Origin: a bacterium
GTDB lineage: Bacteria; CSSED10-310
Assembly (NCBI GenBank): GCA_049652745.1
Contig: JBASEY010000033.1
Coordinates: 20,159 to 84,158 of the forward strand
Length of the DNA: 64,000 bases
Reading direction: 5' to 3'
Position 1 is the stretch's first letter; the number at the start of each line of letters is the position of its first letter. The position numbers and the translations under genes are program-made. Below, piece by piece: positions 12,564 through 36,868 of this stretch. The notes beneath the pieces were generated by a model, which saw only the letters and a list, made by a program, of their open reading frames with translations, had not been told where the DNA came from and did not search any database.

Positions 12564-12890
12564 ATGCAGGCAGAATTTTACATAGTCACCACTACGGTCG
12601 GCAACGAAACGACGGCGGCGGAGCTTGCCCGCCGGATCGTCGAAGCCCGTTTGGCTCGATGCGTACAAATCGTGCCGAGAATCCGATCGATTTATCATTG
12701 GGACGGTGAAATCTGTGATGATGAAGAAAGTTTGTTGATCCTCAAAACAGCTCGGAAAAATCTCGATCAACTTTTAAAAACCTTACCGACTCTCCACCCT
12801 TACGAGGTGCCTGAAATTCTGGTCACACCGGTTACGGACGGTCATAAACCTTATTTGAAATGGTTGGATGAGTGGATATACGGGGATTGA
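12564..12890 (+). CDS. cutA: Divalent-cation tolerance protein CutA.
   Basis: CutA1 fold sequence YIVTTTVGNETTAAELARRIVEARLARCVQIVP...YHWDGEI...HPYEVPEI. An AAAGGAG RBS is present. Confidence 0.8.
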   Translation: MQAEFYIVTTTVGNETTAAELARRIVEARLARCVQIVPRIRSIYHWDGEICDDEESLLILKTARKNLDQLLKTLPTLHPYEVPEILVTPVTDGHKPYLKWLDEWIYGD

Positions 12891-12892
12891 CC

Positions 12893-13345: not shown

Positions 13346-13522
13346 AATGGATCGCACTTCAAACAGGATTCAGCGGGCGGTTTCACCTACGACCACCCTT
13401 TTCCAACATGGACATTGCTGACGATTCCGATTACACTATGATCTGATCATGACAAGGATGAACAATCAGTTTTTCGATATGTTCACCGGGAAAATTGACA
13501 CCGATTAACCAGGGAGGTTTTT

Positions 13523-14710
13523 ATGGCCGGAAAGCGAAGCATGGATGATTTAAATGTTATGGGGAAGCGTGTTTTTATGCGTGTGGATTTCAATGTTCCG
13601 ATCAAAAACGGGCAAGTTGCCGACGACAAGCGTATTCAAGCGGCACTGCCATCGATTCGTGCCGTCATTGAAAACAATGGAAAACTGATACTTGCATCTC
13701 ACCTGGGTGACCCCAAAAACGGGCCGGATCCCGCTTTCAGTCTTAAACCCGTGGCGGAGCGTCTTTCCGAGCTGATCGATCGGCCGGTCATTCTGGCGCC
13801 GGATTGCATCGGTGAATCTGTTGGTCTGCTGATATCCAAAATGCAAAACGGCGATGTCATCCTATTGGAAAACCTTCGTTTTCATCCCGGCGAAAAAAAG
13901 AATGATCCGGCATTCGCAAAGGCCCTTGCCGAGCATGTCGATGTTTATATCAACAACGCCTTCGGAGCCTGCCATAGAGCCCATGCATCGATTGTCGGCC
14001 TGCCGGCGCTGATCCCTGAATCCGCTGCCGGGCATCTCATCATGAAAGAAGTGGAATATCTAGACACTGCCGTCCGCCACCCGCGCCGACCGTTCTATGC
14101 TCTGCTGGGCGGCGCAAAAGTATCAGGAAAACTGGCCTTGATAAAAAATCTGCTCCCGAAAGTCGATGGTATTCTGATCGGCGGTGCCATGTCTTACACC
14201 TTCATGAAAGCCTTGGGCAACGAAATCGGCAAATCACCGGTCGAATATGATCTGATCGAAACCGCGCTTGAAACACTTTTACTGGCTGAAGAAAACGATA
14301 AACTGTTCCTGCTTCCATTGGATACCGTCATAGCTCCCTATCCCGAACCCGGGGTTCCTCATCGGATTGTCGAAGCAGGAACCATCCCATCCGATATGGA
14401 AGGATTCGATATAGGCCCGAAAACCATCAAGCTTTACAGCAGTTACCTGGAAAAAGCCGGCACGGTTATCTGGAACGGACCGATGGGCATGTTCGAAATT
14501 CCTGAGTTTTCCACCGGAACCTTCACTTTGGCGCGTGTGCTGGCTGCATCCGGCGCGATCAGCATTGTCGGCGGCGGCGATTCGGCGTCAGCAATGAGAA
14601 AAGCGGGTGTCACGGACCAAATGACCCATGTTTCCACCGGAGGCGGCGCCAGCCTGGAATACTTGGAGGGAAAGGAACTCCCTGGTATCGCTGCGCTTCC
14701 GAACGCCTAA
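13523..14710 (+). CDS. pgk: Phosphoglycerate kinase.
   Basis: GKRVFMRVDFNVP, the hinge and C-terminal nucleotide-binding motifs GGGDSASA, and a GGGAGG RBS. Confidence 0.95.
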   Translation: MAGKRSMDDLNVMGKRVFMRVDFNVPIKNGQVADDKRIQAALPSIRAVIENNGKLILASHLGDPKNGPDPAFSLKPVAERLSELIDRPVILAPDCIGESVGLLISKMQNGDVILLENLRFHPGEKKNDPAFAKALAEHVDVYINNAFGACHRAHASIVGLPALIPESAAGHLIMKEVEYLDTAVRHPRRPFYALLGGAKVSGKLALIKNLLPKVDGILIGGAMSYTFMKALGNEIGKSPVEYDLIETALETLLLAEENDKLFLLPLDTVIAPYPEPGVPHRIVEAGTIPSDMEGFDIGPKTIKLYSSYLEKAGTVIWNGPMGMFEIPEFSTGTFTLARVLAASGAISIVGGGDSASAMRKAGVTDQMTHVSTGGGASLEYLEGKELPGIAALPNA

Positions 14711-14739: not shown

Positions 14740-15906
14740 TTATACCCGGTCAATCGCCGATCGCGCTTTGAAATATACCTGCTTCAATGGAATACCATGT
14801 TCAATAGCGATTTTCCGGCAGTCTTCGTATTCCGGTGAAATCGTTTGACCGGAGCAGGTAACCCTCACTTGCCCCCATGGCGTTTCAGCCATTTTGATTT
14901 CTCTTGGAACACTGGTGCGCAGCACCCGGGTTTCCCGAACTCCCAGCGTGCGGGTTTCGGCGAATAAAACCGCTTTGGCTTTTTCAACTGCTTTTTCTTT
15001 GCATAAAACACGCAACAGATGACCGGGACGACACTTTTTGCGTAGCGTTCCCAACATTGTGACATCCAGAACGCCATCGACCGCAAGCAGTTTTTCAAAG
15101 CAATATCCCAGAATTTCCGGTGTGTCGTCATCGATATCCGTTTCCAACATGACCAATGACTCTACGATAAAATCCCCTTTGCTGCTCTCCGACTCAATTG
15201 CGCCGATTATCGCCCTCAACACATTCGCTCGATCACCGTCATCTCTGGCGCCGGCGCCGTGACCGATTTGAAGGGGAATCAGATTTCCGGGCGGGTCGAA
15301 GGAGTCGATAAACTCAGCGGCCAGAGCCGCGCCTGTCGGTGTTGTGCGCTCACCCGGCAGACCATCGATAAGAACTGGGATGTTTTTCAAAATCAAAGCA
15401 GTAGCCGGCGCAGGGACGGGGACGACACCATGCGAAAAGGTGACGGTGCCGGAGCCGGTGTTCAAAGGTGTTGAATAAATTTTTTCGACTCCTAATACAT
15501 CCAAACCCCAGGCAACACCCAATATGTCCACGATGGTATCCAATCCGCTCACCTCGTGAAGGTGAACCTTTTCCATTGATACGCCATGCACCTGGGATTC
15601 CGCGGCGACTATTCTTTCAAAAGCCGACAACGCTCTTTTGATCACGGTATCTTTCAATCCGGAGCCGGAAATGGCTTCCCGAATATCCGACACATGCAAA
15701 TGGCGATGAACATGAGGTGTCACTGTCACAAATGTTGCCGTAATACCTTTTTTCACCGTTTTTTGAATATCGACCTCATCGTCGGCAACACCTATAGAGC
15801 GCAGCATATCTTTGAATTTCGATGCATCTAACCCGGCATCCAGCAAAGCTCCTAAAAACATATCTCCACTGATTCCGGCTTGGCACTGCAAATACAATAC
15901 TTTCAT
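14740..15906 (-). CDS. larC: LarC-family (DUF111) nickel-insertion protein. It is a homolog of the nickel-pincer cofactor biosynthesis enzyme.
   Basis: N-terminal MKVLYLQCQAGISGDMFLGALLDAGLD is the LarC N-terminal signature. The ATG at 15906 has a strong AGGAGG RBS. The GTG at 15924 is less likely. Confidence 0.8.
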   Translation of the reverse strand: MKVLYLQCQAGISGDMFLGALLDAGLDASKFKDMLRSIGVADDEVDIQKTVKKGITATFVTVTPHVHRHLHVSDIREAISGSGLKDTVIKRALSAFERIVAAESQVHGVSMEKVHLHEVSGLDTIVDILGVAWGLDVLGVEKIYSTPLNTGSGTVTFSHGVVPVPAPATALILKNIPVLIDGLPGERTTPTGAALAAEFIDSFDPPGNLIPLQIGHGAGARDDGDRANVLRAIIGAIESESSKGDFIVESLVMLETDIDDDTPEILGYCFEKLLAVDGVLDVTMLGTLRKKCRPGHLLRVLCKEKAVEKAKAVLFAETRTLGVRETRVLRTSVPREIKMAETPWGQVRVTCSGQTISPEYEDCRKIAIEHGIPLKQVYFKARSAIDRV

Positions 15907-15973
15907 CGGTGTATCCTCCTTCACGCTTGTTTGATATCGACTATCATTCTAAACTATCGATTAAAGGGTGTGG

Positions 15974-19000: not shown

Positions 19001-20134
19001 TTGTTGACCCGCACATTCAACATCATGACGCGTGATCTCGAGGTTCAGCGGATCGATCTGCAAGAGCGCTATACCTTTATCAACGCCTTGCTGGCGAGGA
19101 TGTCATCAGCTATTTTGGCTGTAGACAATACCGGTAACATTTTGACTTGGAACGAGGCTTTCCAAAATCTCTTTCCAACATCCGGCATAGATGGAGAAAA
19201 TCACAAAATTGACAGAGTTTTCATGGATATTGGGATTCCTGAACTGAAAATGATTTTCGATGGCTACGTTTCCGGATCGGTCGAAGATCGACATGTTTTT
19301 CGTTTTTTCAGGGAAGGTCGAATAGTTCATTTAGCGGTCACGTTTGCCAAATTGCAGTTCCCCGGCAGGTTGACAGGGATTTTGATCGTCATGGACGATA
19401 TCACTGATACCGTACAATCATCAAAGCTCCAGGCATACAGTGAAATGGCCAGACGCATCGCTCATGAAGTCAAAAATCCCTTGACACCCATTCAATTGTC
19501 CATCGAACATCTTCGTCAGGCATGGGAGGACGGCGCCGCCGATTTTCCGGCTATATTCAATCAATGCCTTTCAATGGTTCTGGAGGAAGTGAGAAGTCTT
19601 GAACGGATTTCGACGGAGTTCAGTCGGTTTGCACGTTTTCCCAAGCCGTCTTTTCAATTGGATGATATGCGGCATGTCATCAATGAGGTGGCGGCAATGT
19701 ATCCGGCAGCCTTGACCGGTACGACTTTTCAGGTGGATCTGCCTGATGACCCGCTTCTTTGCCGCTATGACCACGATCAGATCAAACGCGTTTTAATCAA
19801 CCTTGTCCAAAATGCACTTCAAGCAATGGACAACAAGGGTGTTCTCAAGCTGAAAGGCAGTCGCGACGGCAATTGGATCAAAATCGAGATCGTTGATACC
19901 GGACCGGGTATGGATAAAGAGACGTTGATGAACCTTTTTGAACCATATTTCAGCACGAAAAAAGAGGGGGCCGGATTAGGCCTTGTCATCACCAAAGCCG
20001 TAATCGAGGCACATGAAGGGATTATCCAGGTACAAAGCGCGCCAGGGGAAGGCACAAGTTTCATTTTTCGCTTGGCGGCCGCGGATTCAATAACTCCCAT
20101 CAGGGAAGAAAAAGGTGGGTTCAATGCAGAGTAA
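16025..20134 (+). CDS. Large multi-pass sensor histidine kinase, NtrY-like, with HAMP, PAS, HisKA and HATPase domains.
   Basis: There are three clusters of TM helices. A HAMP-like segment follows the last TM (RRIARPVKALTE). The H-box is HEVKNPLTPIQLSIEHLRQ. The ATP lid is GAGLGLVITKAVIEAHEGIIQVQSAPGEGTSF. The start is uncertain, between the GTG at 15968 and the ATG at 16025. Confidence 0.8.
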   Translation: MTKIRLMVFLIITPLVSSIGFGSDFSTPRPTASITNPSTENPLSVFLESLDRFIPFVHDQLHDLPSSDEKQLFENLASLQKQIDRETAKQSLPSIAGTALFTETGAWSAWSGVIEDLPGNWMEYIATSESGAGIVVLYETPAKAIIVHLTKGDYRIAMTQIILIDRSIDGIQPDGMMIQGKHNHYLFRYLSPFDRLPGVMPLSSNLSESILPDILLPIEDIAAKQSFFGNECLPEWLRPLFDPHFFAGNFLGLHSAGMLLVAGLIAWSLTHRLVTFQPNRHRKKLLVVFTAFSSLATIFFVSRLAHSLISDTSFAWWPEFPIEYSLATLALPLSALLLAGAWMRWIFFLLLSLIQSRSRSDSPFKKHHIPGWLCQISAIALLSPYLISLSGATIRQNISSRLQNWINERERLLPLALENNLDILSADEMLYHWEDGAPFSNTAFHLWRKSDLHVFEADFAVQILDENGVILQQFSPFFTPDTLHPEILDQSLAVDTGRLIIPPRLHHHSIHSPLIGITAVETDDDMFVYLVIQIAMEPGAIKPPPHRWGDAITVHVARREDSSELHRDIPAVLQAEWFEHPPSEPKWIDDESGRFQALLFRLPYSDPTQPEILVGLLPRISFESHLAGIARLALLSMCLLMPGLAYFEIKHIVRSRKEKTYGSFTRQLLGAFLLPVIALPLIFAVTLHRVIDDSETEFQKEQMAQMLQQTLMQLKEHTIEQAKILRSNVEHHFFNEYDPDFSGVMGGTWLVLDEFGRETMSGATPSIHDLPLETISRVFQETYYRGRAADEIVFQSRSPGELTAQVILAFPQFPAMNSNDEVFQGTFVCEIPITDDACRSLDEFSDSLIAIYSQGSISASNRPELFQTGLISNRLDASLYRSLVFQKRDTLLKFDRTHGQYSVTGAFYSEFSHVIGAATMSFTRFPFTAQHSKANEWLFPTTLFLLVSGILFSLYFGRRIARPVKALTESALEVSKGNFNVIVPEHGAGEIRLLTRTFNIMTRDLEVQRIDLQERYTFINALLARMSSAILAVDNTGNILTWNEAFQNLFPTSGIDGENHKIDRVFMDIGIPELKMIFDGYVSGSVEDRHVFRFFREGRIVHLAVTFAKLQFPGRLTGILIVMDDITDTVQSSKLQAYSEMARRIAHEVKNPLTPIQLSIEHLRQAWEDGAADFPAIFNQCLSMVLEEVRSLERISTEFSRFARFPKPSFQLDDMRHVINEVAAMYPAALTGTTFQVDLPDDPLLCRYDHDQIKRVLINLVQNALQAMDNKGVLKLKGSRDGNWIKIEIVDTGPGMDKETLMNLFEPYFSTKKEGAGLGLVITKAVIEAHEGIIQVQSAPGEGTSFIFRLAAADSITPIREEKGGFNAE

Positions 20135-21494
20135 ATTGATACTTGTAATCGACGACGAAGTGGGTATTCGGCGCAGCCTGCGAATGATTTTGGAGTATTC
20201 AGGATATGCTGTCGAAGAAGCCGCCGATGGAGAATCAGGTCTTTTTGCGGCACGAAAACATAGACCGGACTGTGTTCTATTGGATATAAAGATGCCGGGG
20301 ATGGACGGCCTGGAGGTTTTGGAGATATTGATGCAGGATTATCCGAGCCTACCGGTCATCATTTTGTCGGGCCACGGCACAATTGAAACGGCCGTCAAGG
20401 CCACTCGAACAGGCGCTTTCGATTTTCTTGAAAAACCCCCTAAAAAAGACCGTATTTTATTGGCTGTCAGAAACGCTTTGAATATAGGCAATCTGGAAGC
20501 CCGCGTCAAAGCCGCCGACGGCGATATGGCCGAAACGGTTATTGTAGGTGAGTCGAAAGCTATTCGAGCCGTCATGGAAATGGTCGAACGTGTCGCCCCG
20601 TCTCCCCTTCCAGTTCTGATCCAAGGTGAAAGCGGCACCGGGAAAGAATTGATCGCTCGGGCAATTCATGAAAAATCTCTACGACGCCAAGGGCCTTATA
20701 TCCAGGTCAATTGTGCGGCAATTCCGGAAGACCTTATCGAAAATGAGCTTTTCGGACATGAGAAAGGCGCGTTTACCGGCGCTGGAGAACGTCGAATCGG
20801 CAAATTTGAAAAGGCGCATCAAGGGACTATTTTTCTGGATGAAATCGGAGATATGTCGTTGAAAACACAGGCCAAGGTTTTGCGTGCCCTTCAAGAAGGC
20901 GAATATCAACGTGTCGGAGGCAACAGAACGCTTCATTCGGATGTTCGCGTCATCGCCGCCACCAACCAAAACTTGGAAGCGTTGATACAAGAAGGCGCGT
21001 TTCGGGAAGACCTGTTCCATCGAATAAACGGTATCCCAATCAGGGTTCCAGCTCTACGTGAACGAACGGAAGATATCCCGCTTTTAGTCAAATACTTTGC
21101 GGAACGATTTATACTGGCCAATGGAATCCGTGCGCCGGGCTATTCCAAAGACGCCGTCGAATGGCTCAAGAAACAACCCTGGAAAGGAAATATAAGAGAA
21201 TTGAAAAATTTCGTCGAGCGCCATCTTATCCTGTGTACAGAAAATCAAATCGATGCCGCCTACCTGAGTCGTTTAAATGAAAGCTCCGAGATAAATCCAG
21301 GTCCACCCGACGGATTCGCTCCCCATCGGCATGCATCTTTACAAGATTTCAAGGAAGCTGCAGAAAAAACGTTTTTGATCCAAAAACTTCAGGAACACAA
21401 TTGGAATGTCAAAGCGACAGCCGAAGCGATCGGCACACCCCGCTCGAATTTATATAAAAGAATGCAGTATTTCGGGATTGAACGATCGAGTTAA
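20124..21494 (+). CDS. Sigma-54-dependent response regulator, NtrC/NtrX-like, with REC, AAA+ and Fis-type HTH domains.
   Basis: REC segment ILVIDDEVGIR...LLDIKMPGMDG. Walker A is GESGTGKELIARAIH. ESELFGHEKGAFTGA is the GAFTGA sigma-54 contact. A C-terminal HTH is present. The gene overlaps the end of the kinase gene. Confidence 0.85.
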   Translation: MQSKLILVIDDEVGIRRSLRMILEYSGYAVEEAADGESGLFAARKHRPDCVLLDIKMPGMDGLEVLEILMQDYPSLPVIILSGHGTIETAVKATRTGAFDFLEKPPKKDRILLAVRNALNIGNLEARVKAADGDMAETVIVGESKAIRAVMEMVERVAPSPLPVLIQGESGTGKELIARAIHEKSLRRQGPYIQVNCAAIPEDLIENELFGHEKGAFTGAGERRIGKFEKAHQGTIFLDEIGDMSLKTQAKVLRALQEGEYQRVGGNRTLHSDVRVIAATNQNLEALIQEGAFREDLFHRINGIPIRVPALRERTEDIPLLVKYFAERFILANGIRAPGYSKDAVEWLKKQPWKGNIRELKNFVERHLILCTENQIDAAYLSRLNESSEINPGPPDGFAPHRHASLQDFKEAAEKTFLIQKLQEHNWNVKATAEAIGTPRSNLYKRMQYFGIERSS

Positions 21495-23017
21495 AAATCG
21501 ATAAGCGAAACACGTGTTGTAACGACTTTGTTGGGATCGATCCACTTTTCAAAATGTTTCAACCACCACAGCGTGACAGCACGCCGCAATTTCCAAGCGG
21601 TCCGCCTGATACCGACGAAATAACCCCAATAAACCAGAAAAAACAAACTCTTGCCCCATATGCTTCCCCGGTTGTCCAAAATGAAGCGGATAACCGTCCC
21701 CGGTGTCTTCGGAACCGCTCTCATCAAACGATTTAATAGGGTGGGTTGATATCGAAAAAATTCCTCGTTATACAGCTTGTCATTCCCCTCCGATACCAGG
21801 CCGTCGGCAACCGCACGTTCTTCCAGACTTGTTTTTGGATAGAAAATCAAGCTGACAATCCCGACAAAAAACGGTTTTTTTAAATAAGAAAGAACCCGAA
21901 CGGTTTCCGCCGACTCTTCCTCCGTTTCATAGGGATTGTCGGTAATCACATCGACACGAACATCGACGATTTGTTTACGATATTCATGCAAAATGGTCAT
22001 ACATTCAAAAAACTGTTTATGGCTGACCTTTCGCTGATAAACTTCTTCAGATACTCTTGGACTACCGGACTCTAAACCGACATGTACCCCGACCAGCCCG
22101 GCAGGCACAAGCCTCTCGATCCGTTCCCGCGTCACGGCCACAGGATTGGCCCAGCAATAAAACGGGAGCCCGACATGCTTTTTATAGAGTTCTGAAAACG
22201 ATGCAAACCATTCCCTGTCTCCATAAAAAAACGAATCGTCCATAAACACAAAGCCTTTTAAATCCGGGAAGCGTTTTTTGATCAGGATCATTTCGTCGAC
22301 AAAATGCTCGGGGGATCGACGTCGTAAATAGGGACCACCCGCCACGATACGCAACGCTGAATTACAGCAATAGGTGCAGTTGTGAGGGCATCCTCTGCTG
22401 GACATAACGTAATGGGTATCCATGAAGCCGGGGATATAAGAGCGCCAAATCGCTTTGGATACAGCCTGCATCCGCTTGGCGTGGAAGACGGTATGCGTAT
22501 CTGAATCATGATCCGGAAAAGGAAGATCACTTAAATTGTCTTCTCTGTCAGCAGGAGGATTTCTGATGATTTCACCCTTGGCCGTTCGAACCCAGATACC
22601 AGGAATCGACATGAACGATTCTCCCGCCGACATGGCTTTTACCAGAGCGCTCATAGGCTTTTCACCTTCGCCTATACAGACCATATCGGCATAATCAAGG
22701 CACTCTTCAGGCGCCAAAGTTGGATGGATGCCGCCCCATATAACCGGAGCTTTACAGATTTTCCGTATGGCTTCATGTATGGACACCGCCCGCCTCCAGT
22801 GGCTGCTCATCAAGCTGAATCCGATTAGATCAGGTTTTTTTTCGACAACCCATTCTGAAATGTCCATCAGTTCCCGCTCCGATTCCAACTGGTCAAATTC
22901 TTTAGGAATAAAGAGAATTTGAACGTCATATCCTTCTCTTTTCAAAACGGCGGAAATCATTCTCACCCCGAAACACACCAAAGTATTTTCAACACTGATC
23001 AACAGAATTTTCATCAA
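21491..23017 (-). CDS. Class B radical SAM enzyme with a B12-binding domain.
   Basis: The N-terminal cobalamin-binding Rossmann segment is KILLISVEN...DLIGFSLMSS. The radical-SAM cluster motif is C-PHN-C-TY-C. The gene overlaps the methyltransferase upstream by 4 nt. Confidence 0.8.
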   Translation of the reverse strand: MMKILLISVENTLVCFGVRMISAVLKREGYDVQILFIPKEFDQLESERELMDISEWVVEKKPDLIGFSLMSSHWRRAVSIHEAIRKICKAPVIWGGIHPTLAPEECLDYADMVCIGEGEKPMSALVKAMSAGESFMSIPGIWVRTAKGEIIRNPPADREDNLSDLPFPDHDSDTHTVFHAKRMQAVSKAIWRSYIPGFMDTHYVMSSRGCPHNCTYCCNSALRIVAGGPYLRRRSPEHFVDEMILIKKRFPDLKGFVFMDDSFFYGDREWFASFSELYKKHVGLPFYCWANPVAVTRERIERLVPAGLVGVHVGLESGSPRVSEEVYQRKVSHKQFFECMTILHEYRKQIVDVRVDVITDNPYETEEESAETVRVLSYLKKPFFVGIVSLIFYPKTSLEERAVADGLVSEGNDKLYNEEFFRYQPTLLNRLMRAVPKTPGTVIRFILDNRGSIWGKSLFFLVYWGYFVGIRRTAWKLRRAVTLWWLKHFEKWIDPNKVVTTRVSLIDF

Positions 23018-24015
23018 CCTTGTCTCCTAAACGGTTCGACTCGGAATCCTCCCAGCAATGCTTGTAAAATATAACATTCTGACAATCGTCTTCTTTTCTG
23101 AAACCGTTCCGTATTCACAGGAATAATCACGATGTGATCCAATGCCGCTTGTGGAAATTTCACCGCCAGTTCAGCGTCTATCCATAAAAGACAGGCTGTT
23201 GTCCTCGGAGTCAAAACACGTCTTTTCCAGGCGGCCTGATGTTCATATTTTCCCAGCAGCATATGATGGATCGCTTCTTTTGCGCTGTGTCCAAGTTCCG
23301 TTGTCGTGAGTGTAAAATCGTAATACGATCGGCGTTGAATCAGCGATGTGCAGTCAGCCCATGCCAACCTGTTCAGAAGTGAATTAACCATTCGCGTCCT
23401 GGCGCCCAGATATATACTGTTTGGACCGCCCAAAACCCGTATATCTCGATCGGTAAAAAAATGGATATGAGCGTGCGGTTCCTTGGGATCCAACGTTTCG
23501 AAATGGCGTTTTTTCGCCGCTTCATCCTGCGCCCGCGGAGTGCTCAACACAACGAATCGTCGCGCAACTCTTACCAATTCTTTGATGACGACTGCTGGAT
23601 CGATGACATGCTCCAGCACCTCTGTACACAGACAGATGTCCATTGATTGATCACGGAAAGGCAATTGGTGGGCATCGGCTGCGGCTCCAAGCCCTTTGAA
23701 CATCTCACCACTGCGAACCAATGCTCGGTCGGAAAGGTCAGTCCCGTAGACAGCGGTACCGAAGAGGTGACGAATCAAAGCCGGACCGTATCCATCGGCG
23801 CTTCCGACATCCAACAGCGTTTCAAACGGCAGGCGGTTCAAAGTCTTTAATACGGCGAACATTCTAGCATATTCTTCCAGTCTGAAAGCCGCTGCATTGA
23901 ACCCATATGCAGGCTGGTTGGGAATGTAAACGCCGTCCTGATCATACAAATCAAAACGTTTGTTCAGCCAAGCGCGCGTTTCGCGGGTATATTTTCGTGC
24001 ATTTAGTTCATTCAA
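23014..24015 (-). CDS. Class I SAM-dependent methyltransferase with a C-terminal extension.
   Basis: Motif I is LLDVGSADGYG and post-I is VYGTDLS. TTG start with an AAGAGG RBS. Confidence 0.7.
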   Translation of the reverse strand: MNELNARKYTRETRAWLNKRFDLYDQDGVYIPNQPAYGFNAAAFRLEEYARMFAVLKTLNRLPFETLLDVGSADGYGPALIRHLFGTAVYGTDLSDRALVRSGEMFKGLGAAADAHQLPFRDQSMDICLCTEVLEHVIDPAVVIKELVRVARRFVVLSTPRAQDEAAKKRHFETLDPKEPHAHIHFFTDRDIRVLGGPNSIYLGARTRMVNSLLNRLAWADCTSLIQRRSYYDFTLTTTELGHSAKEAIHHMLLGKYEHQAAWKRRVLTPRTTACLLWIDAELAVKFPQAALDHIVIIPVNTERFQKRRRLSECYILQALLGGFRVEPFRRQG

Positions 24016-24176
24016 GGATTCAGCCTCTTAACCATGATATAGCCCTTCACTTTGTTTGTCACCTGTTCCAAAAGCGAAATCGATAGTGCTTTTAGCTAAA
24101 AATCACCTTCGTTTCCATTCAAATTTGTAAATTAATTTGTTAAAATGGTTGCTTTCGAGGTTAGGAGGTAATCCCC

Positions 24177-25205
24177 GTGAACAACGATTCCAATACAGCA
24201 CATTCATTTCCACATTTTCAGTCGATTATGGACAGCATCGACAATCTGCCGGGGCATCGCATACTTGTTTTGGGGGACATCATGGTAGATGAATATATTT
24301 GGGGCGAAGTCATGCGGATCAGCCCTGAAGCTCCTGTTCCGGTGGTTCATGTTCAAAATGAGACGATGCAATTAGGCGGTGCGGCAAATGTCGTGCATAA
24401 TTTAAAATCTTTGGATGCCGAAGTCGAGTTGGTAGGTGTGATAGGGTCTGACGATCTTTCCAGAAGAGTTCTGGCGGCCTTGGATCGACTACAGATCGGC
24501 CATTCGGGAATCAGATTGATCCAGAATCGGGAGACGATCCGAAAAACCCGTATAATCGCTCACAATCAACAGGTAGTACGAGTCGACCATGAGAAAATTC
24601 TTCCTCTGGAGCCGGAAGTGGAAACATTTTTGATCGATTATTGTTTACATCGTTTGCGGGAAGTCGAGGCGGTGATCATCTCAGATTATGCAAAGGGGAC
24701 CTTGACTAAAAGACTGGTTCAATCCGTCATTCAGGCCTGTCGGAAAATGGGTAAAATTTGTGCGGTCGATCCTCGGGTAAAAAACCATGAATTTTATGTC
24801 GGTTGTTCCGTCATCACTCCCAACCATCTGGAAGCGGCTTTGATGACGGGTATTGCGATGGACTCCGACTGGGACCGAGCGCTTCAGCAGGCTGGTAAAC
24901 AGTTGTTGTCCTCACTTGCAACCGATGCCGTGCTGGTCACTTGTGGCGAAAGAGGAATGGCGATTTTTCTACCGGATGAACCTGCTCAACACATCGATAC
25001 CGTTGCGCAAAGTGTTTTCGATGTCACCGGTGCAGGCGATACGGTCATCAGCGCTTTGACCCTGGGTTTGACAGGCGGTTTGAGCTATTCTGAAGCCGCC
25101 GTTCTGGCAAACTTCGCCGCTGGTATCGTCGTTGGAAAAGTCGGGACGGCAACCGTTACTCTCAATGAAATAAAAAAAGCGGTTCGATTGTATGCACGTT
25201 GCTGA
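24177..25205 (+). CDS. hldA: D-glycero-beta-D-manno-heptose-7-phosphate kinase. This is a stand-alone HldE domain I, in the PfkB family.
   Basis: ILVLGDIMVDEYIWGEVMRISPEAPVPVV and the PfkB C-terminal motif DVTGAGDT are present. GTG start with an AGGAGG RBS. Length 342 aa, with no adenylyltransferase domain. Confidence 0.8.
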   Translation: MNNDSNTAHSFPHFQSIMDSIDNLPGHRILVLGDIMVDEYIWGEVMRISPEAPVPVVHVQNETMQLGGAANVVHNLKSLDAEVELVGVIGSDDLSRRVLAALDRLQIGHSGIRLIQNRETIRKTRIIAHNQQVVRVDHEKILPLEPEVETFLIDYCLHRLREVEAVIISDYAKGTLTKRLVQSVIQACRKMGKICAVDPRVKNHEFYVGCSVITPNHLEAALMTGIAMDSDWDRALQQAGKQLLSSLATDAVLVTCGERGMAIFLPDEPAQHIDTVAQSVFDVTGAGDTVISALTLGLTGGLSYSEAAVLANFAAGIVVGKVGTATVTLNEIKKAVRLYARC

Positions 25206-25956
25206 TTCAAAAGCCAAATCCGTCTTGGTCATTCCAGCCCGGTATGCCTCGACCCGCTTCCCAGGCAAACCATTGGCTCTTATCGACGGCATCCCGATGA
25301 TCGTACGTGTTCTGAATCAGGCAAAAAAAGTCAGGCGTGTATCCAAAATCGTTGTGGCCACCGATCATGACGATATTCGATCGACCGTGGAAAACGCCGG
25401 CGGATATGTCGTTATGACATCGTCGGATATTGCCACCGGTACTGACAGAGTGGCTGCCGCCGCTGCCGACATAGACTGTGATATCGTCGTCAATCTGCAA
25501 GGTGATGAACCATTGATAAATCCTGATCACATTACTCAAGCCATCGAAGACCTTCAATCCGACCCCGGGGCCGACATGGCGACCTTGGCTTGCCCGGTGC
25601 ATGACCCGGCGGATATTCTTAATCCCAATGTCGTCAAAGTGATCATTGACGCATCGAGTTATGCCGTCTATTTTTCCCGGGCTCCCATCCCCTATACGGC
25701 GGATGCCGTGCCGACGGACTGGAAATTTTATCTCAGACACATCGGGCTTTACGTATTCAAACGGTCTTACTTGTATAAATTTGTCTCTTTAGAACAGGCC
25801 TGGAGCGAAAAAGTAGAAAAACTCGAGCAGCTCCGTGCTCTGCATCATGGCGGAATTATTCGCGTATCCTTGGTCGATTCGATGAGTCCAGGGGTGGATA
25901 AACCCGAAGACATTGCTATAATAGAACAATTACTGCGTAAACAAAGTGAACGCTAA
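25192..25956 (+). CDS. kdsB: 3-deoxy-manno-octulosonate cytidylyltransferase (CMP-Kdo synthetase).
   Basis: [27 protein letters not shown] and [11 protein letters not shown]. Confidence 0.9.
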
Positions 25957-25975
25957 ATGCCAGGAGTATTATGGA

Positions 25976-27583
25976 ATGGAAACTAAGTACATTTTTGTAA
26001 CCGGTGGAGTTGTATCTTCGTTGGGCAAAGGGATTGCCTCGGCGGGGATTGGAGCGCTGCTTGAAAGCAGAGGGTTTCGCGTCACACACTTAAAATTCGA
26101 TCCTTATTTGAATGTCGATCCAGGCACCATGAGCCCGTTACAACATGGCGAAGTTTTCGTCACCGATGATGGCGCCGAAACCGATCTCGACTTGGGTCAT
26201 TATGAGCGGTTTACTCAATCGACTATGAAGCAAGCGAACAATGTCACGGCTGGGGCGATTTACAACACTATTCTTACGAAAGAAAGGCGGGGTGACTTTC
26301 ATGGTGGAACCGTTCAGGTTGTGCCGCATGTCACTGATGAAATCAAAAACAGAATAACAAAGCTGGCGCCTGGATTCGATGTCGTCATTGTCGAACTCGG
26401 CGGCACGGTTGGAGATATCGAAAGTCTTCCGTTTTTAGAAGCGATCCGCCAGTTCCGGTACGATGTCGGCCCGGATAATACGCTGTATGTGCATCTGACT
26501 TTAGTCCCATATATTCGGGCGGCACGTGAGATCAAAACCAAACCCACTCAACACAGTGTCAAAGAATTACGCGAAATCGGTATTCAACCCGATATCCTAC
26601 TCTGCCGAACTGAAATGCCTCTCAGCGACCAGATAAAACGAAAGATATCTCTGTTTTGCAACGTGGACACACGCGCCGTCATCGCAGCGCCCGATGTCGC
26701 CAGTATTTATCAAGTCCCGCTGGAATATGCCCGGGAGGAACTGGATGACCTGGTGATCGAAAAGTTACGATTGCCGAATTTGCCACCCAATTTAGACGAA
26801 TGGAAGTCAATTGTTCACACGCTCAATTACCCGAAACACAAAGTGCGCATTGCTGTTGTCGGCAAATATGTGCTTTTAAAAGATTCTTATAAAAGTCTTG
26901 CTGAGGCTTTCATCCATGGCGGTATAGCCAATGAAACTCAAGTGGATTTGAATTGGATCGATTCCAGCCAGTTTGAAAAACACGGGCCGGAAACTCTTCT
27001 GAAAGGTCACAGCGGTATTCTTGTTCCTGGAGGTTTTGGGGATCGGGGTGTCGAGGGTAAAATTCTTGCCGTCCAATATGCTCGCGAACACCGAATACCT
27101 TATTTTGGTATCTGTCTGGGTATGCAAGTTGCCATCATAGAATTTTGCAGAAACATCTGTGGCTTGGAGGATGCCAACAGCACAGAATTCAATGAAAACA
27201 CGTCAAACCCTGTTATCGATCTGCCTACGGGCCAAGATAAACAAGCGAAGATGGGGGGTGCTCTTCGACTGGGAGCTTATCCTTGTCATTTGATGGATAA
27301 CACCATCGCTCGAAAAACATATGGCAGCGAAATCATCTCCGAGCGGCACCGGCATCGTTACGAATTCAACAATACCTACAGACAGTTGATTGAGGACCAT
27401 GGCATGATCATCAGTGGAGTATCCCCAGATAAAAGCCTGGTGGAAATAGTTGAAATCAAGGACCATCCCTGGTTTGTCGCCGTGCAATACCGCCCGGAAT
27501 TCAAATCATCTCCGCGCAAACCCCATCCGCTGTTTGTCGCTTTTATCAAAGCTGCACTGGAAGAGAGTGAATGCCAAGGCTGA
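25976..27583 (+). CDS. pyrG: CTP synthase.
   Basis: N-terminal [24 protein letters not shown]. The glutamine amidotransferase region is [12 protein letters not shown]...GICLGMQ. AGGAG RBS. Confidence 0.95.
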
Positions 27584-28503
27584 AATTGTTATGGAAAGCA
27601 TTCAAACGCCGGTCAATAGGAATCATTGTCCTTTCCGTCGCATATATCATCGCCAGGGTTCCGCAAAAATATGCCGATTTTCTGGCGAGATTTTTAGGCA
27701 AAGCCGTGTATCGCCTATCGAAAAAAACACGTGAAAGAATTTTAAACAATCTTATTTTGGTTTACGGCGATTCAATGGATGAGCATGTACGCCATGAAAT
27801 GGCGCTTAAAATTTGTTTAAACTTGGCGTTTCACATCGTAGAATCCGTACGTTTAGCCGTCATTGGCCCCGAGATGGTACGAATGATGATCGATGACAAT
27901 CAATGTGAGGAAATTCTTAACGCACACCTGGAAGCGGGAAAAAGCATCATGATCGTCACCGCTCATTATGGAAACTGGGAGCTTTTTGCTGCCAGAATCG
28001 CACAAATAGCGCCGTTGACTGTTCTGGCTCGAAGAAACAACAATCCATATATCGAAGCAGCTATCGCTCGTGCCAGAGAAAAACATCGTGTCAGAGTGTT
28101 GGATAGAAGCGATCCGGGGACACCGCGGGAAATGATTCAAATGGGACATGAAGGCGGCCACATAGTTGGAATCCTTGTCGACCAGGACACGATCAAGATT
28201 CAAGGGATATTTTCAAACTTTATGGGCTTGCCGGCATTGACGCCAAGCGGCCCGGCGGCTGTTGCTATACGTCAACTATTCACGGTTTTTATCGGGGTCT
28301 TGAAACCGATAGCAGACCATAAACACAAAATTATCTTGAACGGTCCGATCCCTATCCCGACGAATGGATCGAGGGAACAAAAAATTCAACTTCTCACCGA
28401 TATATTCAATCAACATTTAAGCGATATTATATTAGAAGACCCTCTATATTGGGTCTGGAATCATCGTCGATGGCGCCATAGACCGGAAGCGAGCGGGAAC
28501 TGA
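27571..28503 (+). CDS. lpxL: Lipid A biosynthesis late acyltransferase, LpxL/HtrB family.
   Basis: An N-terminal TM segment. The HX4E motif is HYGNWE. The family architecture is present. The gene overlaps the pyrG stop. Confidence 0.75.
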
Positions 28504-28505
28504 TT

Positions 28506-29651
28506 ATGCCGTGGCTGGTTTCAATAGCTCTTTTTCTAGGCATTTTACTCGGTATCATTATTGGGTTTAAATGGAACTCCAGCGGTAAATCCCAAGCATT
28601 ACAGGATGAAACGAACAAATACCTCGGCAGCGCTCTTTTAGCGCTCGTCAACCATAACCGTGACAAAGCGATGGAGCAATTATCCTTTCTAATCGGTAGA
28701 ACAACAGAAAACATCGAAGCTTATATAGCCTTGAGCAACCTTTATCGAGATAAAGGATGGTTTCATCGTGCCATCGATATCAGAAGGCGTTTATTAGCCC
28801 GCGCAATCATCACTCCCGAGCAGCGTCGGACAATCATGCTGGGTATGGTTTTTGATTACCAGAGGGCCGGATTGGTCGGACGTGCAATCGAGGCCATGAA
28901 AATCATTATTGATATGACGGAACCATCACAAGAGGACTACGAAATTCTAGCCGGTCTTTATGAATTGTCAGGCCGGCTGCAGGATTCGGCAGAAGTTTGG
29001 CGCAGAGTCGGGCATGACGAAAATTACGCATATGTTCGAACGGAATTGGCTCGAGTGATGATTCAAAACGGAAATCTGGATGGAGCTAAAAAGCTGTTGG
29101 TTCATACATTGAAAGTTCATCGGAACAATCCCGCGGCATTGCTGCTTTTAGCAGACTTGAATGCCCGATCAGGTAAAACCTCACGAGCGGAAAGACTGTT
29201 TGACCGGCTTCAAAAAATTCGGCCGGATTTGACGGGGGTCATTGCAGACAACTTGGAAAAAATAGCGACAGAGACAAATCATGCGCAAACTCAGGCTTTT
29301 TTCCTGCACTTGTTGGAAACACAAAAATCCAGGCCGAGAGTTGCTGTCCGATATGCTGCATATCTGGTCAAACTAGGTCGTTTAGAAGACGCACGACAAA
29401 TAATCGAAAATATAAAGACGGATGAACTCGCGCCGGAAACGATGACTCGTCTTGTATTGGTCGCGTATCAGAGCGGTGCGGTCGAATCTGCAGCTCGATA
29501 TGGGTTGGAGACTATCCAGAGATATCTTGATAACAAGGCCTTTGTTTGTCATGCTTGTAAAGAACTCGTTTATATTTTTGAATGGAAATGTCCTAAATGC
29601 GGACGCTGGGGAACCATCCGAAGCCGACGTTCCTACTCGAAACAGCCGTGA
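28506..29651 (+). CDS. lapB: LPS assembly protein LapB (YciM): N-terminal TM, TPR repeats and a C-terminal rubredoxin-type zinc ribbon.
   Basis: The TM segment is MPWLVSIALFLGILLGIIIGF. TPR-like helices follow. The C-terminus is C-HAC...C-PKC-GRWG. Confidence 0.8.
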   Translation: MPWLVSIALFLGILLGIIIGFKWNSSGKSQALQDETNKYLGSALLALVNHNRDKAMEQLSFLIGRTTENIEAYIALSNLYRDKGWFHRAIDIRRRLLARAIITPEQRRTIMLGMVFDYQRAGLVGRAIEAMKIIIDMTEPSQEDYEILAGLYELSGRLQDSAEVWRRVGHDENYAYVRTELARVMIQNGNLDGAKKLLVHTLKVHRNNPAALLLLADLNARSGKTSRAERLFDRLQKIRPDLTGVIADNLEKIATETNHAQTQAFFLHLLETQKSRPRVAVRYAAYLVKLGRLEDARQIIENIKTDELAPETMTRLVLVAYQSGAVESAARYGLETIQRYLDNKAFVCHACKELVYIFEWKCPKCGRWGTIRSRRSYSKQP

Positions 29652-29664
29652 AAGGAAAACAAGG

Positions 29665-30324
29665 ATGAAATCGATACATTTTCTTGTGCTGGCCATCAAC
29701 TTCTCGACTTTGATGTGCCATTCGGCATTTGCATTCGTTTTGCCCTCTACCGTGACGACTGAACAATGGCAAGACAGCTATATGGCAAAATGGCAGTCCG
29801 GGAATGAAGGTGATAAAGTCGATGCCATCGAACAACTCGCCGCCCTGCTTCTTTTGTTGCCACCCTCAGATTCAATGGGATCGATCACCAGCGAATCTCT
29901 GGAACGGTTTATACAAATATCTCCGGATGCTTTGATGGCTCAAGCTTTTTATTCACTCCAAAGCGGTAACCCGAAAATCGCTTCTCAACGTCTTCTGGAC
30001 ATCATCCTCAAATATCCTGACGAGCCGCGGATCAATCGCTTTCGAATCGCTCTTGCTCGCGCTTTCAGGGAAGAAGGAAAATATGACCTTGCCGCGGCGC
30101 AGTTGGACCCTTTGATGAACTTGATTACCACAGATGGAAAATGGGCAACATTGGAAAAAGTGGATTTGTTGCATAAAACGGGTGATTTCAAAGGCGCCGT
30201 TCAGATACTCAAATTATTGGCTCCGGCCGTCGAGGGGTCCGGATATTTTGAATATCGTGTCAAACAAGCCCTGGCCGCGGCTGGCACTGAACACATGTTG
30301 CGACTTCAAATGGAGACTGAATGA
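29665..30324 (+). CDS. Secreted TPR-like helical protein (hypothetical).
   Basis: The ATG at 29665 has an AAGGAAAACAAGG RBS. Signal peptide MKSIHFLVLAINFSTLMCHSAFA. The gene overlaps the mutS start (ATGA). Confidence 0.55.
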   Translation: MKSIHFLVLAINFSTLMCHSAFAFVLPSTVTTEQWQDSYMAKWQSGNEGDKVDAIEQLAALLLLLPPSDSMGSITSESLERFIQISPDALMAQAFYSLQSGNPKIASQRLLDIILKYPDEPRINRFRIALARAFREEGKYDLAAAQLDPLMNLITTDGKWATLEKVDLLHKTGDFKGAVQILKLLAPAVEGSGYFEYRVKQALAAAGTEHMLRLQMETE

Positions 30325-32921
30325 CAGGCGCCGGTTCGACACAGACGCCCATGATGCGGCAATATAAAGAACTCAAAGCTAAATATCCCGACGCTATTTT
30401 GTTTTTCAGGATGGGGGATTTTTATGAAATGTTTGGGGATGACGCCATTAAGGCCGCCCCTATCCTGGATGTAGTACTGACATCTCGGGATAAAACCAGT
30501 GATGAAAAAATTCCGATGTGCGGAATACCTTGGCATTCAGCTAATAGCTATATTGCAAAACTAATTGAACACAACTTAAAAGTGGCTATCTGCGAACAGC
30601 TCGAAGATCCCAAACTGGCCAAAGGTATCGTCAAGCGCGGCATCGTTAGAATTATCACTCCAGGAACGATTCTTGAGGACAATCTTCTTTCTTCCAAAGA
30701 AAACAATTACCTTGCCTGCCTGGCAGCCGCTTCTAATCGTTTTGGTATCGCGCTTCTGGATGTGTCGACGGGTGACTTCAGAGCTACGGAAATCCCGAAC
30801 ACTCCGGATCCACAAGCGTATAAAGATGAATTGAGACGATGGCCGATTAGAGAGTTGTTGCATCCTGAATCTTTTGAGCCGGTCGGCATCGATAAAACTA
30901 TCAGAATAAACGCTCTTGAAGACTGGATTTTTACAAAAGATCACGCAATTGAACGAATACGTGAACATTTCGGAGTCATGCATCTGGATGGATTCGGTCT
31001 CCAGGAGTCGCCTGCCGCAACTCTCGCCGTAGGAGCCCTGTTGGATTACCTCAAATCCACTCAATTGGCTGCCCTAAAACATATATCGAGCTTGCAAACC
31101 TACCATAACGATCAATTCGTTTTCCTCGACAGCGCCAGCCAACGCAACCTGGAGCTGTCTCGGACAATGATGGATAACCGCCGGGAAGGCAGCTTGCTCC
31201 ATTTTCTGGATGAAACATGCACGGCTATGGGCAGCCGCCTGTTGAAGCAGAGATTGGAACAGCCTCTTCGTGATCCCAATGCTGTTGACCAAAGACTTCA
31301 AGAAGTCGATGGTTTTTACTCTGACGGCGATTTTCGATCACTTGTCAGAAACGAGTTGGAAAAAATTGCCGACCTGGAACGGCTCATGGGTCGAATCACT
31401 GCGAAAATAGCAACCCCCCGTGATCTCTCCGCTCTGCGGTTCAGTCTCCACCGTTTACCGGCTCTGAAAACAATCGTGTCCAAATCCAAAAACACCCGCC
31501 TTCAATTCTTAGGTGAAGCCATAGACCCGGTGGATTTTGTCCGCGATCTTTTAGATCGATCTATTCAAGACAATCCGTCGGCCACGTTAAAAGACGGCGG
31601 CGTCATTCGTGATGGTTTCAACACGGAGCTTGACGGTTTTCGTGCTGCGGCCAAAGATGGAAAAAAATGGATCGCACAACTTCAAAAGCAAGAAATGGAA
31701 GCGACGGCAATTCCATCTTTAAAAATTCGATACAATAAATTGTTCGGTTTTTTTATTGAGGTAACAAATACACATTTAGATAAGGTGCCGGACAGGTATA
31801 TCCGCCGTCAAACACTGGTTAATTCCGAGCGGTTTGTCACGCACGAATTGAAAGAAATGGAAGAGACTATTTTAGGCGCTGAAGAGAAGATGTTGGCGTT
31901 GGAAGCTGAACTTTTCAATGAAATCAGAGATTCCATCGCTGAATCGGTTGCTCGGGTTCAACAAACAGCCAGAGTTATAGCAGAATTGGATGTTGCAGCA
32001 ACCGCTGCGGAACTGGCGGTCACATATCGTTATAGGCGACCTGAAATTCGTGCGGGAAATGATCTGATTATCATGGGAGGTCGTCATCCCGTAGTGGAAA
32101 GAATGGCATTGGATAGGGGTTTTGTGCCCAATGACACCTACTTGAACGGGGATGAAAACCGTCTTGTCATTTTGACAGGTCCGAATATGGCTGGGAAAAG
32201 CACATATATTCGACAGGTGGCCTTGATCGTATTGATGGCGCAGGCCGGCCTTTACGTTCCGGTGGATAGCGCCGTCATTGGAACAGTGGATCGAATTTTC
32301 ACGCGTGTCGGTGCGTCGGATAACTTGGCAGCAGGCCAATCGACATTCATGGTTGAAATGAGTGAGGCGGCTAACATATTGAACAATGCGACAAGTCAAA
32401 GTCTTGTGATATTGGATGAAATTGGTCGCGGCACATCGACGTTCGACGGGCTTTCGATCGCCTGGGCTGTTGCTGAATATCTTCATGGAGTGAAGTGTCG
32501 CACACTTTTTGCCACGCATTATCATGAGCTGACCGATCTATCTGAGAGGCTTGACAGCGTTAAAAACTTCAATGTCGTTGTCAAAGAATGGAAAGACCAA
32601 GTTATGTTTTTACGCAAAGTTGCGCCGGGAGCCGTCGACAAATCATATGGTATTCAGGTTGCGCGGTTGGCGGGTCTGCCGGCTCAAGTGATCGAACGAT
32701 CTAAAGAAGTTTTGGCAGCTCTTGAATTGAAAGAAAGCGGTCGTGTCCCGGAAACCGGCAGCGCAAAAAAACCTCGTGTCATCCAGCCAAGCCTTTTCAT
32801 GGAAGCGGATACCCCGCTCCTATACGCCTTGAACACAATCGATATACAGAAGCTGACTCCTTTGGATGCATTGAATCTGCTGGCCAAATGGAAAGCCGAG
32901 TATGGGAAAGGACAAAAATAA
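30321..32921 (+). CDS. mutS: DNA mismatch repair protein MutS.
   Basis: N-terminal TPMMRQYKELKAKYPDAILFFRMGDFYEMF. The Walker A is GPNMAGKSTYIRQ. The helix-turn-helix C-terminal region is present. Confidence 0.95.
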   Translation: MTGAGSTQTPMMRQYKELKAKYPDAILFFRMGDFYEMFGDDAIKAAPILDVVLTSRDKTSDEKIPMCGIPWHSANSYIAKLIEHNLKVAICEQLEDPKLAKGIVKRGIVRIITPGTILEDNLLSSKENNYLACLAAASNRFGIALLDVSTGDFRATEIPNTPDPQAYKDELRRWPIRELLHPESFEPVGIDKTIRINALEDWIFTKDHAIERIREHFGVMHLDGFGLQESPAATLAVGALLDYLKSTQLAALKHISSLQTYHNDQFVFLDSASQRNLELSRTMMDNRREGSLLHFLDETCTAMGSRLLKQRLEQPLRDPNAVDQRLQEVDGFYSDGDFRSLVRNELEKIADLERLMGRITAKIATPRDLSALRFSLHRLPALKTIVSKSKNTRLQFLGEAIDPVDFVRDLLDRSIQDNPSATLKDGGVIRDGFNTELDGFRAAAKDGKKWIAQLQKQEMEATAIPSLKIRYNKLFGFFIEVTNTHLDKVPDRYIRRQTLVNSERFVTHELKEMEETILGAEEKMLALEAELFNEIRDSIAESVARVQQTARVIAELDVAATAAELAVTYRYRRPEIRAGNDLIIMGGRHPVVERMALDRGFVPNDTYLNGDENRLVILTGPNMAGKSTYIRQVALIVLMAQAGLYVPVDSAVIGTVDRIFTRVGASDNLAAGQSTFMVEMSEAANILNNATSQSLVILDEIGRGTSTFDGLSIAWAVAEYLHGVKCRTLFATHYHELTDLSERLDSVKNFNVVVKEWKDQVMFLRKVAPGAVDKSYGIQVARLAGLPAQVIERSKEVLAALELKESGRVPETGSAKKPRVIQPSLFMEADTPLLYALNTIDIQKLTPLDALNLLAKWKAEYGKGQK

Positions 32922-32925
32922 TCGT

Positions 32926-33456: not shown

Positions 33457-33472
33457 TCCTTACCTCCCCATT

Positions 33473-34603: not shown

Positions 34604-34604
34604 A

Positions 34605-36866: not shown

Positions 36867-36868
36867 GT

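Follow-up and report, generated by a model that had tools for sequence, protein, structure and literature searches.

A translationally coupled methyltransferase and B12-binding radical-SAM gene pair beside a lipopolysaccharide locus of a CSSED10-310 bacterium, with a possible role in surface-glycan tailoring

We analyzed a 64,000-nucleotide stretch of DNA (contig JBASEY010000033.1 of assembly GCA_049652745.1, positions 20,159 to 84,158, forward strand; hereafter, the window) from a bacterium of the CSSED10-310 lineage, and within it two adjacent genes encoding a class I S-adenosylmethionine (SAM)-dependent methyltransferase (MTase) and a B12-binding radical-SAM (rSAM) protein. The pair lies at the edge of a ~20-kb lipopolysaccharide (LPS) locus, which extends from hldA to lpxB (24177-43558). 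The original prediction for this DNA described a two-gene operon divergent from hldA-kdsB-pyrG-lpxL-lapB, and the open reading frames (ORFs) and the junction between them agreed with an operon of MTase followed by rSAM on the minus strand (Table 1). The divergent orientation was confirmed as well, with hldA (RfaE domain I), kdsB and pyrG scoring above curated cutoffs, and with "lpxL" (143 bits versus 248) and "lapB" (147 bits versus 363) being family-level matches under their equivalog cutoffs. The pair is a transcription unit that is separate from the LPS operon and divergent to it.

Table 1. Positions of the MTase-rSAM gene pair, its protein features and its upstream region in the window
Feature	Position	Strand	Details
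Class I SAM-dependent MTase ORF	23014..24015	-	333 aa, upstream gene of the pair
Longest rSAM ORF	21491..23017	-	508 aa from TTG
rSAM ORF from ATG at 23014	21491..23014	-	507 aa, downstream gene of the pair
MTase stop/rSAM start junction	23012..23030	-	Shine-Dalgarno inside MTase 3' end, AGGAGACAAGGTTGATG
MTase Rossmann-type methyltransferase core, residues 61-194	23434..23835	-	Pfam Methyltransf_23
MTase helical insertion, residues 208-286 (~80 aa)	23158..23394	-	AlphaFold (AF2) secondary structure; conserved in orthologs
rSAM N-terminal B12-binding Rossmann domain, residues 3-125	22640..23008	-	PF02310, E 2.5e-21, 76.2 bits versus cutoff 32.1
rSAM radical-SAM core, residues 206-374	21893..22399	-	PF04055, E 9.6e-19, 68.6 bits versus cutoff 29.5
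CPHNCTYC, CxxxCxxC [4Fe-4S] cluster motif, residues 209-216	22367..22390	-	From the translation
rSAM C-terminal aromatic/basic helical tail, residues 452-504	21503..21661	-	Long helix in AF2 model
Divergent intergenic region, pair/hldA	24016..24176	.	161 bp

The gene pair and its products

The MTase and rSAM genes are coupled across GGTTGATGA, and the sequence of their junction is ...AGGAGACAAGGTTGATGAAA. A 4-nt overlap had been proposed here, which holds only for the longest rSAM ORF, with its TTG start. Because the N-terminus MKxLLIS was present in all rSAM homologs, the start is likely the ATG (Table 1), which yields a 1-nt TGATG overlap with the MTase gene and places AGGAG 9 nt upstream. 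The coupling itself stood, whatever the length of the overlap. Of nine orthologous loci (52-80% identity), eight have the MTase gene directly upstream of the rSAM gene (the window, L001, L002/L003, L004, L005, L007, L093 and L094; L008 lacks the MTase). Overlaps of 4 nt or 1 nt recur in the relatives (L001, L002, L004, L005, L093 and L094), so that seven of the eight paired loci, the window included, have overlapping genes and L007 instead has a 15-nt gap. This recurrence argues that the coupling is real and conserved, and the two genes are predicted to be translationally coupled whichever rSAM start applies. The GC content of the pair (0.48) is the same as that of its flanks, and horizontal transfer of the pair was rejected on this ground. 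The rSAM ortholog clade consists of 506-507-aa proteins that share 48-80% identity and all come from metagenome-assembled genomes. The candidate phylum CSSED10-310, to which at least one of these genomes is assigned, has been described from sediments that are anoxic and sulfidic (PMC8248873).

The rSAM protein was assigned by the original prediction to class B, the cobalamin-binding radical-SAM enzymes, and we reached the same assignment. The N-terminal B12-binding Rossmann domain and the radical-SAM core, each with a Pfam score above its cutoff, and a CxxxCxxC motif within that core are the features of this class, and cysteines C209, C213 and C216 were invariant in an alignment of 40 homologous sequences. 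Cobalamin binding is predicted. AprD4 has a similar N-terminal domain and is yet described as not using cobalamin, so the domain by itself does not guarantee binding. The AF2 model of the rSAM protein had a predicted local distance difference test (pLDDT) score of 93, and a Foldseek search with it returned TsrM as the best match (E 3e-20, template modeling (TM) score 0.63), followed by MgmA, AprD4 and OxsB, all at 17-19% identity; the model superposes on TsrM, MgmA and OxsB. TsrM (6wte/6wtf) and MgmA (9ccb) share with it the N-terminal B12 Rossmann domain, the radical-SAM barrel and a C-terminal helical region (TM about 0.6), but they are only 18-19% identical to it and act on tryptophan and protein glutamine, respectively. 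Furthermore, TsrM is a nonradical methylase, and its NCBIfam model scored 49 bits versus a cutoff of 500 on the window rSAM. At the level of the predicted structure, the fold search confirms the class B architecture and puts the rSAM protein near no characterized enzyme.

No NCBIfam model reached its cutoff with the rSAM protein, and Pfam returned only the two generic domains. The best NCBIfam match was TIGR04072, "lipid biosynthesis B12-binding/radical SAM protein" (122.4 bits versus 360, in two partial stretches); the HpnJ model was third (80 bits versus 577.6). Scores for TIGR04013 (80 bits versus 251), HpnR (49.1 bits versus 650) and the models for BchE, TsrM-type, PhpK, KedN5, Sden_1168, ApyD, BzaD and methyl-coenzyme M reductase (MCR) glutamine methylase (35-75 bits versus cutoffs of 360-750) were similarly below their thresholds, and HpnP was not among the 25 NCBIfam matches listed. 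Identification of the rSAM as HpnR, HpnJ or a ladderane-type enzyme was rejected because the scores lay below the curated cutoffs, and identification as HpnP because it was missing from the matches listed. A sequence search of the PDB returned only TsrM, AprD4, TokK and 9ccb, with E values of 8e-7 to 1e-3, a likeness at the superfamily level.

The C-terminal tail of the rSAM protein contains 12 aromatic, 10 basic and 2 acidic residues among its 53, and the same character recurs across the rSAM family. No transmembrane segment was predicted in the rSAM or MTase, and transmembrane anchoring of either protein was therefore dismissed; the rSAM tail may be an interfacial membrane-binding segment.

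The class I assignment of the MTase was also upheld, since the protein matched Pfam Methyltransf_11 with 56.7 bits versus a cutoff of 21.2 (residues 68-152). It has the Rossmann fold, the glycine-rich SAM motif and the acidic residue ending strand 2 that mark this class: the motif LDVGSADGY and D93 are conserved among 26 homologs, D69 and G71 being invariant and D93 ~90% conserved in the homolog alignment. Further conserved motifs are E132/E135/H136 and PHAHIH at residues 180-185. No NCBIfam model reached its cutoff with the MTase. A ~150-aa C-terminal extension had been proposed, and sequence beyond the Pfam match does exist; however, the AF2 model (pLDDT 94) resolves it as a ~80-aa helical insertion within the fold, with no appended domain. 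The insertion sits between the last two strands (residues 201-207 and 291-299), followed by a terminal helix, and in this model it is likely a substrate-binding lid rather than an added domain. Foldseek identified AtmM, RebM and MitM as the best PDB folds, over the core only (TM 0.4-0.5). AtmM and RebM are sugar 4'-O-methyltransferases that methylate a glucose hydroxyl, and they share the class I fold with the window MTase (top Foldseek E 6e-11, sequence E about 1e-3). They differ from it in their low similarity (TM 0.4-0.5, 17-19% identity) and in lacking both the 80-residue helical insertion and a conserved N-terminal W-LN-RF helix.

A search with the MTase profile yielded 295 cluster representatives at E<=1e-30, many of which span the full profile; this search was exhaustive, while an earlier word-indexed search had given ~22 proteins. 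Restriction of the MTase to the clade of the pair is ruled out by these representatives. Because the MTase subfamily is wider than the clade, and because an out-clade locus (L142) has the MTase without an rSAM, the fixed pairing is a feature of the window lineage. In L142 (8403-11710), the lone MTase gene has a 138-aa Mg_chelatase_C fragment on one side and a full ComM/ChlI-like gene on the other, with a phage-integrase fragment nearby, and may have been inserted into a gene of the comM type. Among longer MTase relatives, the fusion partners were one SLH domain and one Trm112p-like domain, which are uninformative. The architecture of both proteins holds nothing new, and the finding is that of an uncharacterized subfamily of a known enzyme class.

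Gene contexts of the pair and its homologs

The context of this subfamily is suggestive and fairly consistent. Six independent loci that are not syntenic with the window (37-54% identity) were examined, and in all of them the homolog is placed within or next to surface-glycan or envelope genes, with at least three such genes within 8 kb; in several of them the rSAM gene is inside a co-directional operon with Wzx and glycosyltransferase genes. L007 (54% identity) carries genes for an MTase, Wzx, a B12-rSAM, a further MTase and rSAM, a 110-aa ORF, an LpxL-family acyltransferase (Lip_A_acyltrans) that is not the ortholog of the window lpxL, and a GT2. L090 (42% identity) combines Wzx, an rSAM/SPASM protein, two B12-rSAMs, a GT4, a GT2 and an epimerase, and L006, from Patescibacteria (40% identity), has GT4, PMT_2, GT2, GT9, Wzx, a deacetylase, three B12-rSAMs and several methyltransferases. 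An O-antigen-like cluster surrounds the homolog in L009 (37% identity), with Wzy_C, six GT4, DegT and epimerases, and L091 and L092 (38-40% identity) contain LptD, GT2 or PMT_2, and four epimerases. In a rough neighbor-joining (NJ) tree, the window clade had as its closest sisters the clades to which these loci belong.

Twelve more metagenomic loci, from a remoter branch, leaned the same way: their 82 neighbors included 7 sugar epimerases/dehydratases, 6 class I MTases, 5 GT2 and, in addition, 4-5 B12-rSAMs, as well as DegT, PMT_2, TylF and NeuB. The neighbor counts of family loci are raw numbers. An MTase::GT2 fusion is encoded directly upstream of the family rSAM in L100, and in L128 the family rSAM adjoins a nonulosonic-acid-type cluster (NeuB/NeuC/CMP-transferase). 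A scan of a genome collection with the family profile gave, among the matches listed, only distant relatives with 26-36% identity.

Several of these loci have further features of their own. A single operon in L007 (3262-9521) encodes a 286-aa MTase, Wzx, a 538-aa rSAM, a 331-aa MTase and a 506-aa rSAM, and so contains two MTase and B12-rSAM units. The position of the second L007 rSAM in the NJ tree, just outside the ortholog clade, suggests that the unit was duplicated. In L091 (8001-10920) and L092 (8001-10803), the rSAM gene is followed by co-directional genes for an arylamine-type N-acetyltransferase (PF00797) and a DUF4416 protein, forming a conserved rSAM-PF00797-DUF4416 triad, with thioredoxin, an AccD-like carboxyltransferase and LptD encoded downstream. 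One co-directional operon of L100 (1206-12693) contains three B12-rSAM genes, a free class I MTase, a PMT_2 (GT-C), the fusion protein of 560 aa, a GT2 and two sugar epimerases. The L128 region (3956-14051) encodes a second B12-rSAM, two dehydratases/epimerases, a UDP-GlcNAc 2-epimerase, NeuB, a CMP-cytidylyltransferase and a GT2; the parallel with kdsB (CMP-Kdo synthetase) beside the pair in the window may be a coincidence.

The original prediction proposed conservation of the pair next to LPS genes as a check. The pair itself was retained in the relatives, as described above, but adjacency to hldA-kdsB was kept only in the 71% relative, L001, which shows full synteny with the window. In L002 and L004 (57-64% identity) the block is inverted, so that a GNAT gene flanks the pair and lpxL-lapB is 5-7 kb off. 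Comparison of L002 (1-8004) and L004 (1-8001) with window positions 24177-33456 showed an apparent inversion of the hldA-mutS-GNAT block, with the 176-aa GNAT gene, not hldA, divergent to the pair. Because adjacency is kept only in the closest relatives, the LPS placement in the window reflects shared ancestry and does not count as independent evidence.

A possible role in tailoring of a surface glycan

Based on the gene contexts, we hypothesize, with somewhat less than even confidence, that the two co-translated genes form a cassette that tailors a sugar in a surface glycan anchored to the membrane; radical C-methylation would be the most likely chemistry. In a host of Gram-negative type such as this one, the glycan would most plausibly be LPS, at its core or outer chain, or else a lipid- or nucleotide-linked precursor of it, and the context tilts toward a sugar over a lipid as the substrate. 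The envelope-directed modification put forward in the original prediction draws its support from the six non-syntenic loci and the 12 metagenomic loci, and not from the LPS adjacency in the window, which is lineage synteny. The glycan-tailoring case is made from gene context only. The conserved aromatic/basic tail of the rSAM protein fits a membrane-bound substrate.

The domains, the cluster motif, the coupling, the retention of the pair and the glycan or envelope surroundings of relatives are observed. That the substrate is a glycan, that the enzymes work close to a membrane, that the rSAM methylates and which of the two steps comes first are inferred, and the putative mechanism would be as follows. 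The class I MTase would transfer a methyl group from SAM to an O or N atom by SN2 chemistry, with its helical insertion acting as a substrate lid. The B12-rSAM would act on an unactivated carbon, as a radical C-methylase that uses methylcobalamin: the [4Fe-4S] cluster on C209/C213/C216 would reductively cleave SAM to give the 5'-deoxyadenosyl radical, which would take hydrogen from an sp3 carbon of the sugar; the resulting substrate radical would receive a methyl group from methylcobalamin in the N-terminal domain; and cob(II)alamin would then be reduced to cob(I)alamin and re-methylated by a second SAM.

Among characterized class members, MoeK5 acts on a lipid-linked saccharide. GenK/GenD1 (gentamicin) and MoeK5 (moenomycin) provide a precedent within the class for sugar C-methylation, and they resemble the window rSAM in their class B architecture, their sugar sp3-carbon targets and their clustering with glycosyltransferases and ordinary SAM methyltransferases (PMC9204698). 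They belong to actinomycete antibiotic pathways, whereas the genes described here are found with primary envelope-glycan genes of uncultured anaerobes, and no curated model scored above its cutoff with the window rSAM; the resemblance drawn here concerns architecture, substrate type and gene clustering. The pair might build an unusual alkyl decoration, e.g. a C-methyl branch beside an O-methyl group. In cystobactamid synthesis, an ordinary methyl transfer is followed by the B12-rSAM CysS, which extends that methyl group; like the window pair, CysS and its O-methyltransferase join a class B rSAM with a class I MTase, which offers a rationale for the tight coupling. CysS is listed as an iterative methylase (PMC12931638). 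By analogy, the window pair might carry out a CysS-like extension, converting a methoxy group on an LPS sugar to ethoxy or isopropoxy; this is a pure analogy, with neither sequence nor context support, and in the cystobactamid pathway an aromatic acid takes the place of the sugar.

Several observations weigh against the glycan C-methylation hypothesis. The likeness of either protein to characterized enzymes never goes beyond the superfamily level, and the sequence therefore does not reveal the chemistry; C-methylation, which the original prediction suggested for the pair, is an assumption, since B12-rSAMs also carry out ring contractions and other rearrangements. We agree with that prediction that the substrate is not inferable from the sequence. 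Since glycan clusters are frequent and extensive, some adjacency to glycan genes is expected by chance. Only close relatives have the pair directly beside the LPS operon: unrelated genes lie upstream of the pair in L094 (63% identity), which has no LPS adjacency, and the LPS context is lost in L005 and L008 (52% identity). The nearest out-clade MTase relative, that of L142, has no adjacent rSAM, and the host is uncultured. Finally, 15 distant family loci (30-36% identity) had heterogeneous neighborhoods, in which each family accounted for at most 2 of the 97 neighbors; these loci had crude ORF calls, and we consider them uninformative and weighed them neither for nor against.

A first alternative, which we consider unlikely, retains the surface-glycan sugar as the target but makes the rSAM a nonmethylating enzyme that performs a rearrangement, ring contraction, dehydration or oxidation, leaving the MTase as the sole source of methylation. 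The glycan context applies equally to this alternative, and AprD4 (sugar diol dehydration) and OxsB (ring contraction) are among the four best structural matches. HpnJ, the third-best NCBIfam match, is proposed to act in such a way on a hopanoid-linked amino sugar, and several nonmethylating class members appear in reviews (PMC9204698, PMC12931638). However, methylases are by far the largest characterized group of the class (PMC12931638), and the top structural matches, TsrM and MgmA, are methylases. The family scores are so far below their cutoffs that they provide no real test between a methylase and a nonmethylase.

A second alternative is C-methylation of a lipid, either a lipid A acyl chain or a membrane lipid, in place of a sugar. 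The best NCBIfam match, TIGR04072, is a "lipid biosynthesis" model of the ladderane-cluster type, with its 122 bits lying over the radical-SAM core; LpxL-family genes are near the pair in the window, L001, L002 and L004, with an unrelated paralog directly downstream in L007; the rSAM tail suggests a membrane-bound substrate; and B12-rSAM lipid methylases are known, namely HpnP/HpnR and Gmm (PMC11214058). HpnJ, HpnP and HpnR, the hopanoid enzymes, come from the same superfamily and modify parts of the envelope; HpnJ is proposed to act on a sugar-derived head group. Nevertheless, the analogy with lipid and hopanoid enzymes that had been drawn for this protein found no support in the curated models (TIGR04072, 122 bits versus 360; HpnJ, 80 versus 578; HpnR, 49 versus 650), and hopanoid genes were absent from the annotated part of the window (about 13.5-43.6 kb). 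Unlike the TIGR04072 type, the window rSAM is found amid glycan genes, not fatty-acid synthesis genes. In the Pfam-labeled relative loci examined, fatty-acid, isoprenoid and hopanoid synthesis genes were absent, and glycosyltransferases, flippases and nucleotide-sugar enzymes were present instead; furthermore, close homologs occur in Patescibacteria, which are LPS-free. We therefore regard a lipid target as improbable.

It is likewise improbable that the pair is unrelated to the envelope and tailors a small metabolite, cofactor or peptide, its LPS position being inherited synteny: loss of hldA adjacency at or below 64% identity, the heterogeneous neighborhoods of distant family members and the separate transcription of the pair from the LPS operon would agree with this, but three or more glycan or envelope genes occur within 8 kb in each of the six independent contexts (37-54% identity), several rSAM genes are within co-directional Wzx/glycosyltransferase operons, and precursor peptide, polyketide synthase, nonribosomal peptide synthetase and cofactor-pathway genes were not beside the pair in any locus examined.

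The surface-glycan hypothesis may also be extended to the family. It is possible, if somewhat doubtful, that a large branch of B12-rSAMs is dedicated to the tailoring of cell-surface glycans (LPS, O-antigen-like, S-layer and other glycans) across uncultured anaerobes that would include CSSED10-310, Patescibacteria, Omnitrophota, DPANN archaea and marine groups, with the enzyme of the window lineage locked to a dedicated methyltransferase. To our knowledge, nearly all known B12-rSAM enzymes come from pathways for antibiotics, cofactors, pigments and lipids. Word searches of two reviews on the class, one from 2022 (PMC9204698) and one from February 2026 (PMC12931638), found neither "polysaccharide" nor "lipopolysaccharide", and "glycan" was absent from the February 2026 review, the sole one searched for that word. 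No paper on the rSAM family or DUF4416 came up in a full-text literature search of incomplete coverage, and none that describes B12-rSAMs within LPS, O-antigen or glycan loci. If the hypothesis is true, radical C-alkylation would count among the reactions that shape the envelopes of bacteria and archaea, and the structure of surface glycans in anoxic communities would be linked to the supply of vitamin B12. There would also be a functional lead for many of the "B12-binding radical SAM" genes that stand unannotated in candidate-phyla genomes.

Neighboring genes and minor features of the window

Upstream of the pair, the intergenic region contains a sigma-70-like site, GTGACA-17-TATCAT (24062..24034, minus strand), with 10 of 12 matches; such sites do not exceed shuffled expectation. 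On the other flank, the rSAM gene faces two convergent genes, one for a 1388-aa HAMP/PAS histidine kinase and one for a sigma-54 response regulator. Control of the pair by this adjacent regulator was rejected, as the sigma-54 site TGGCAC-N5-TTGC had no match in the intergenic region and the regulator genes are convergent, not co-transcribed with the pair. The stop of the response-regulator gene (20115-21494, plus strand) overlaps the convergent rSAM 3' end by 4 nt (21491-21494), which leaves no room for a terminator, and a convergent overlap of the same two genes is also present in L001 and L004. The response-regulator gene also shares 20 nt (20115-20134) with the 3' end of the histidine-kinase gene.

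The LPS locus, annotated except for positions 39089-39931, carries hldA, kdsB, pyrG, the LpxL-family gene, the LapB-like gene, a tetratricopeptide repeat (TPR) gene and mutS on the plus strand, and GNAT (32926-33456), two GT4, an NAD-epimerase, DUF3108, a GT9 heptosyltransferase, lpxK, waaA and lpxB on the minus strand, so that mutS and pyrG are embedded among LPS genes. A search for riboswitches and other RNA elements found a tRNA (43653-43725) as the only Rfam match in the window; this single tRNA is on the plus strand, just upstream of lpxB. A LarC (nickel-pincer cofactor) gene (14740-15924, minus strand) lies between pgk and the histidine-kinase gene.

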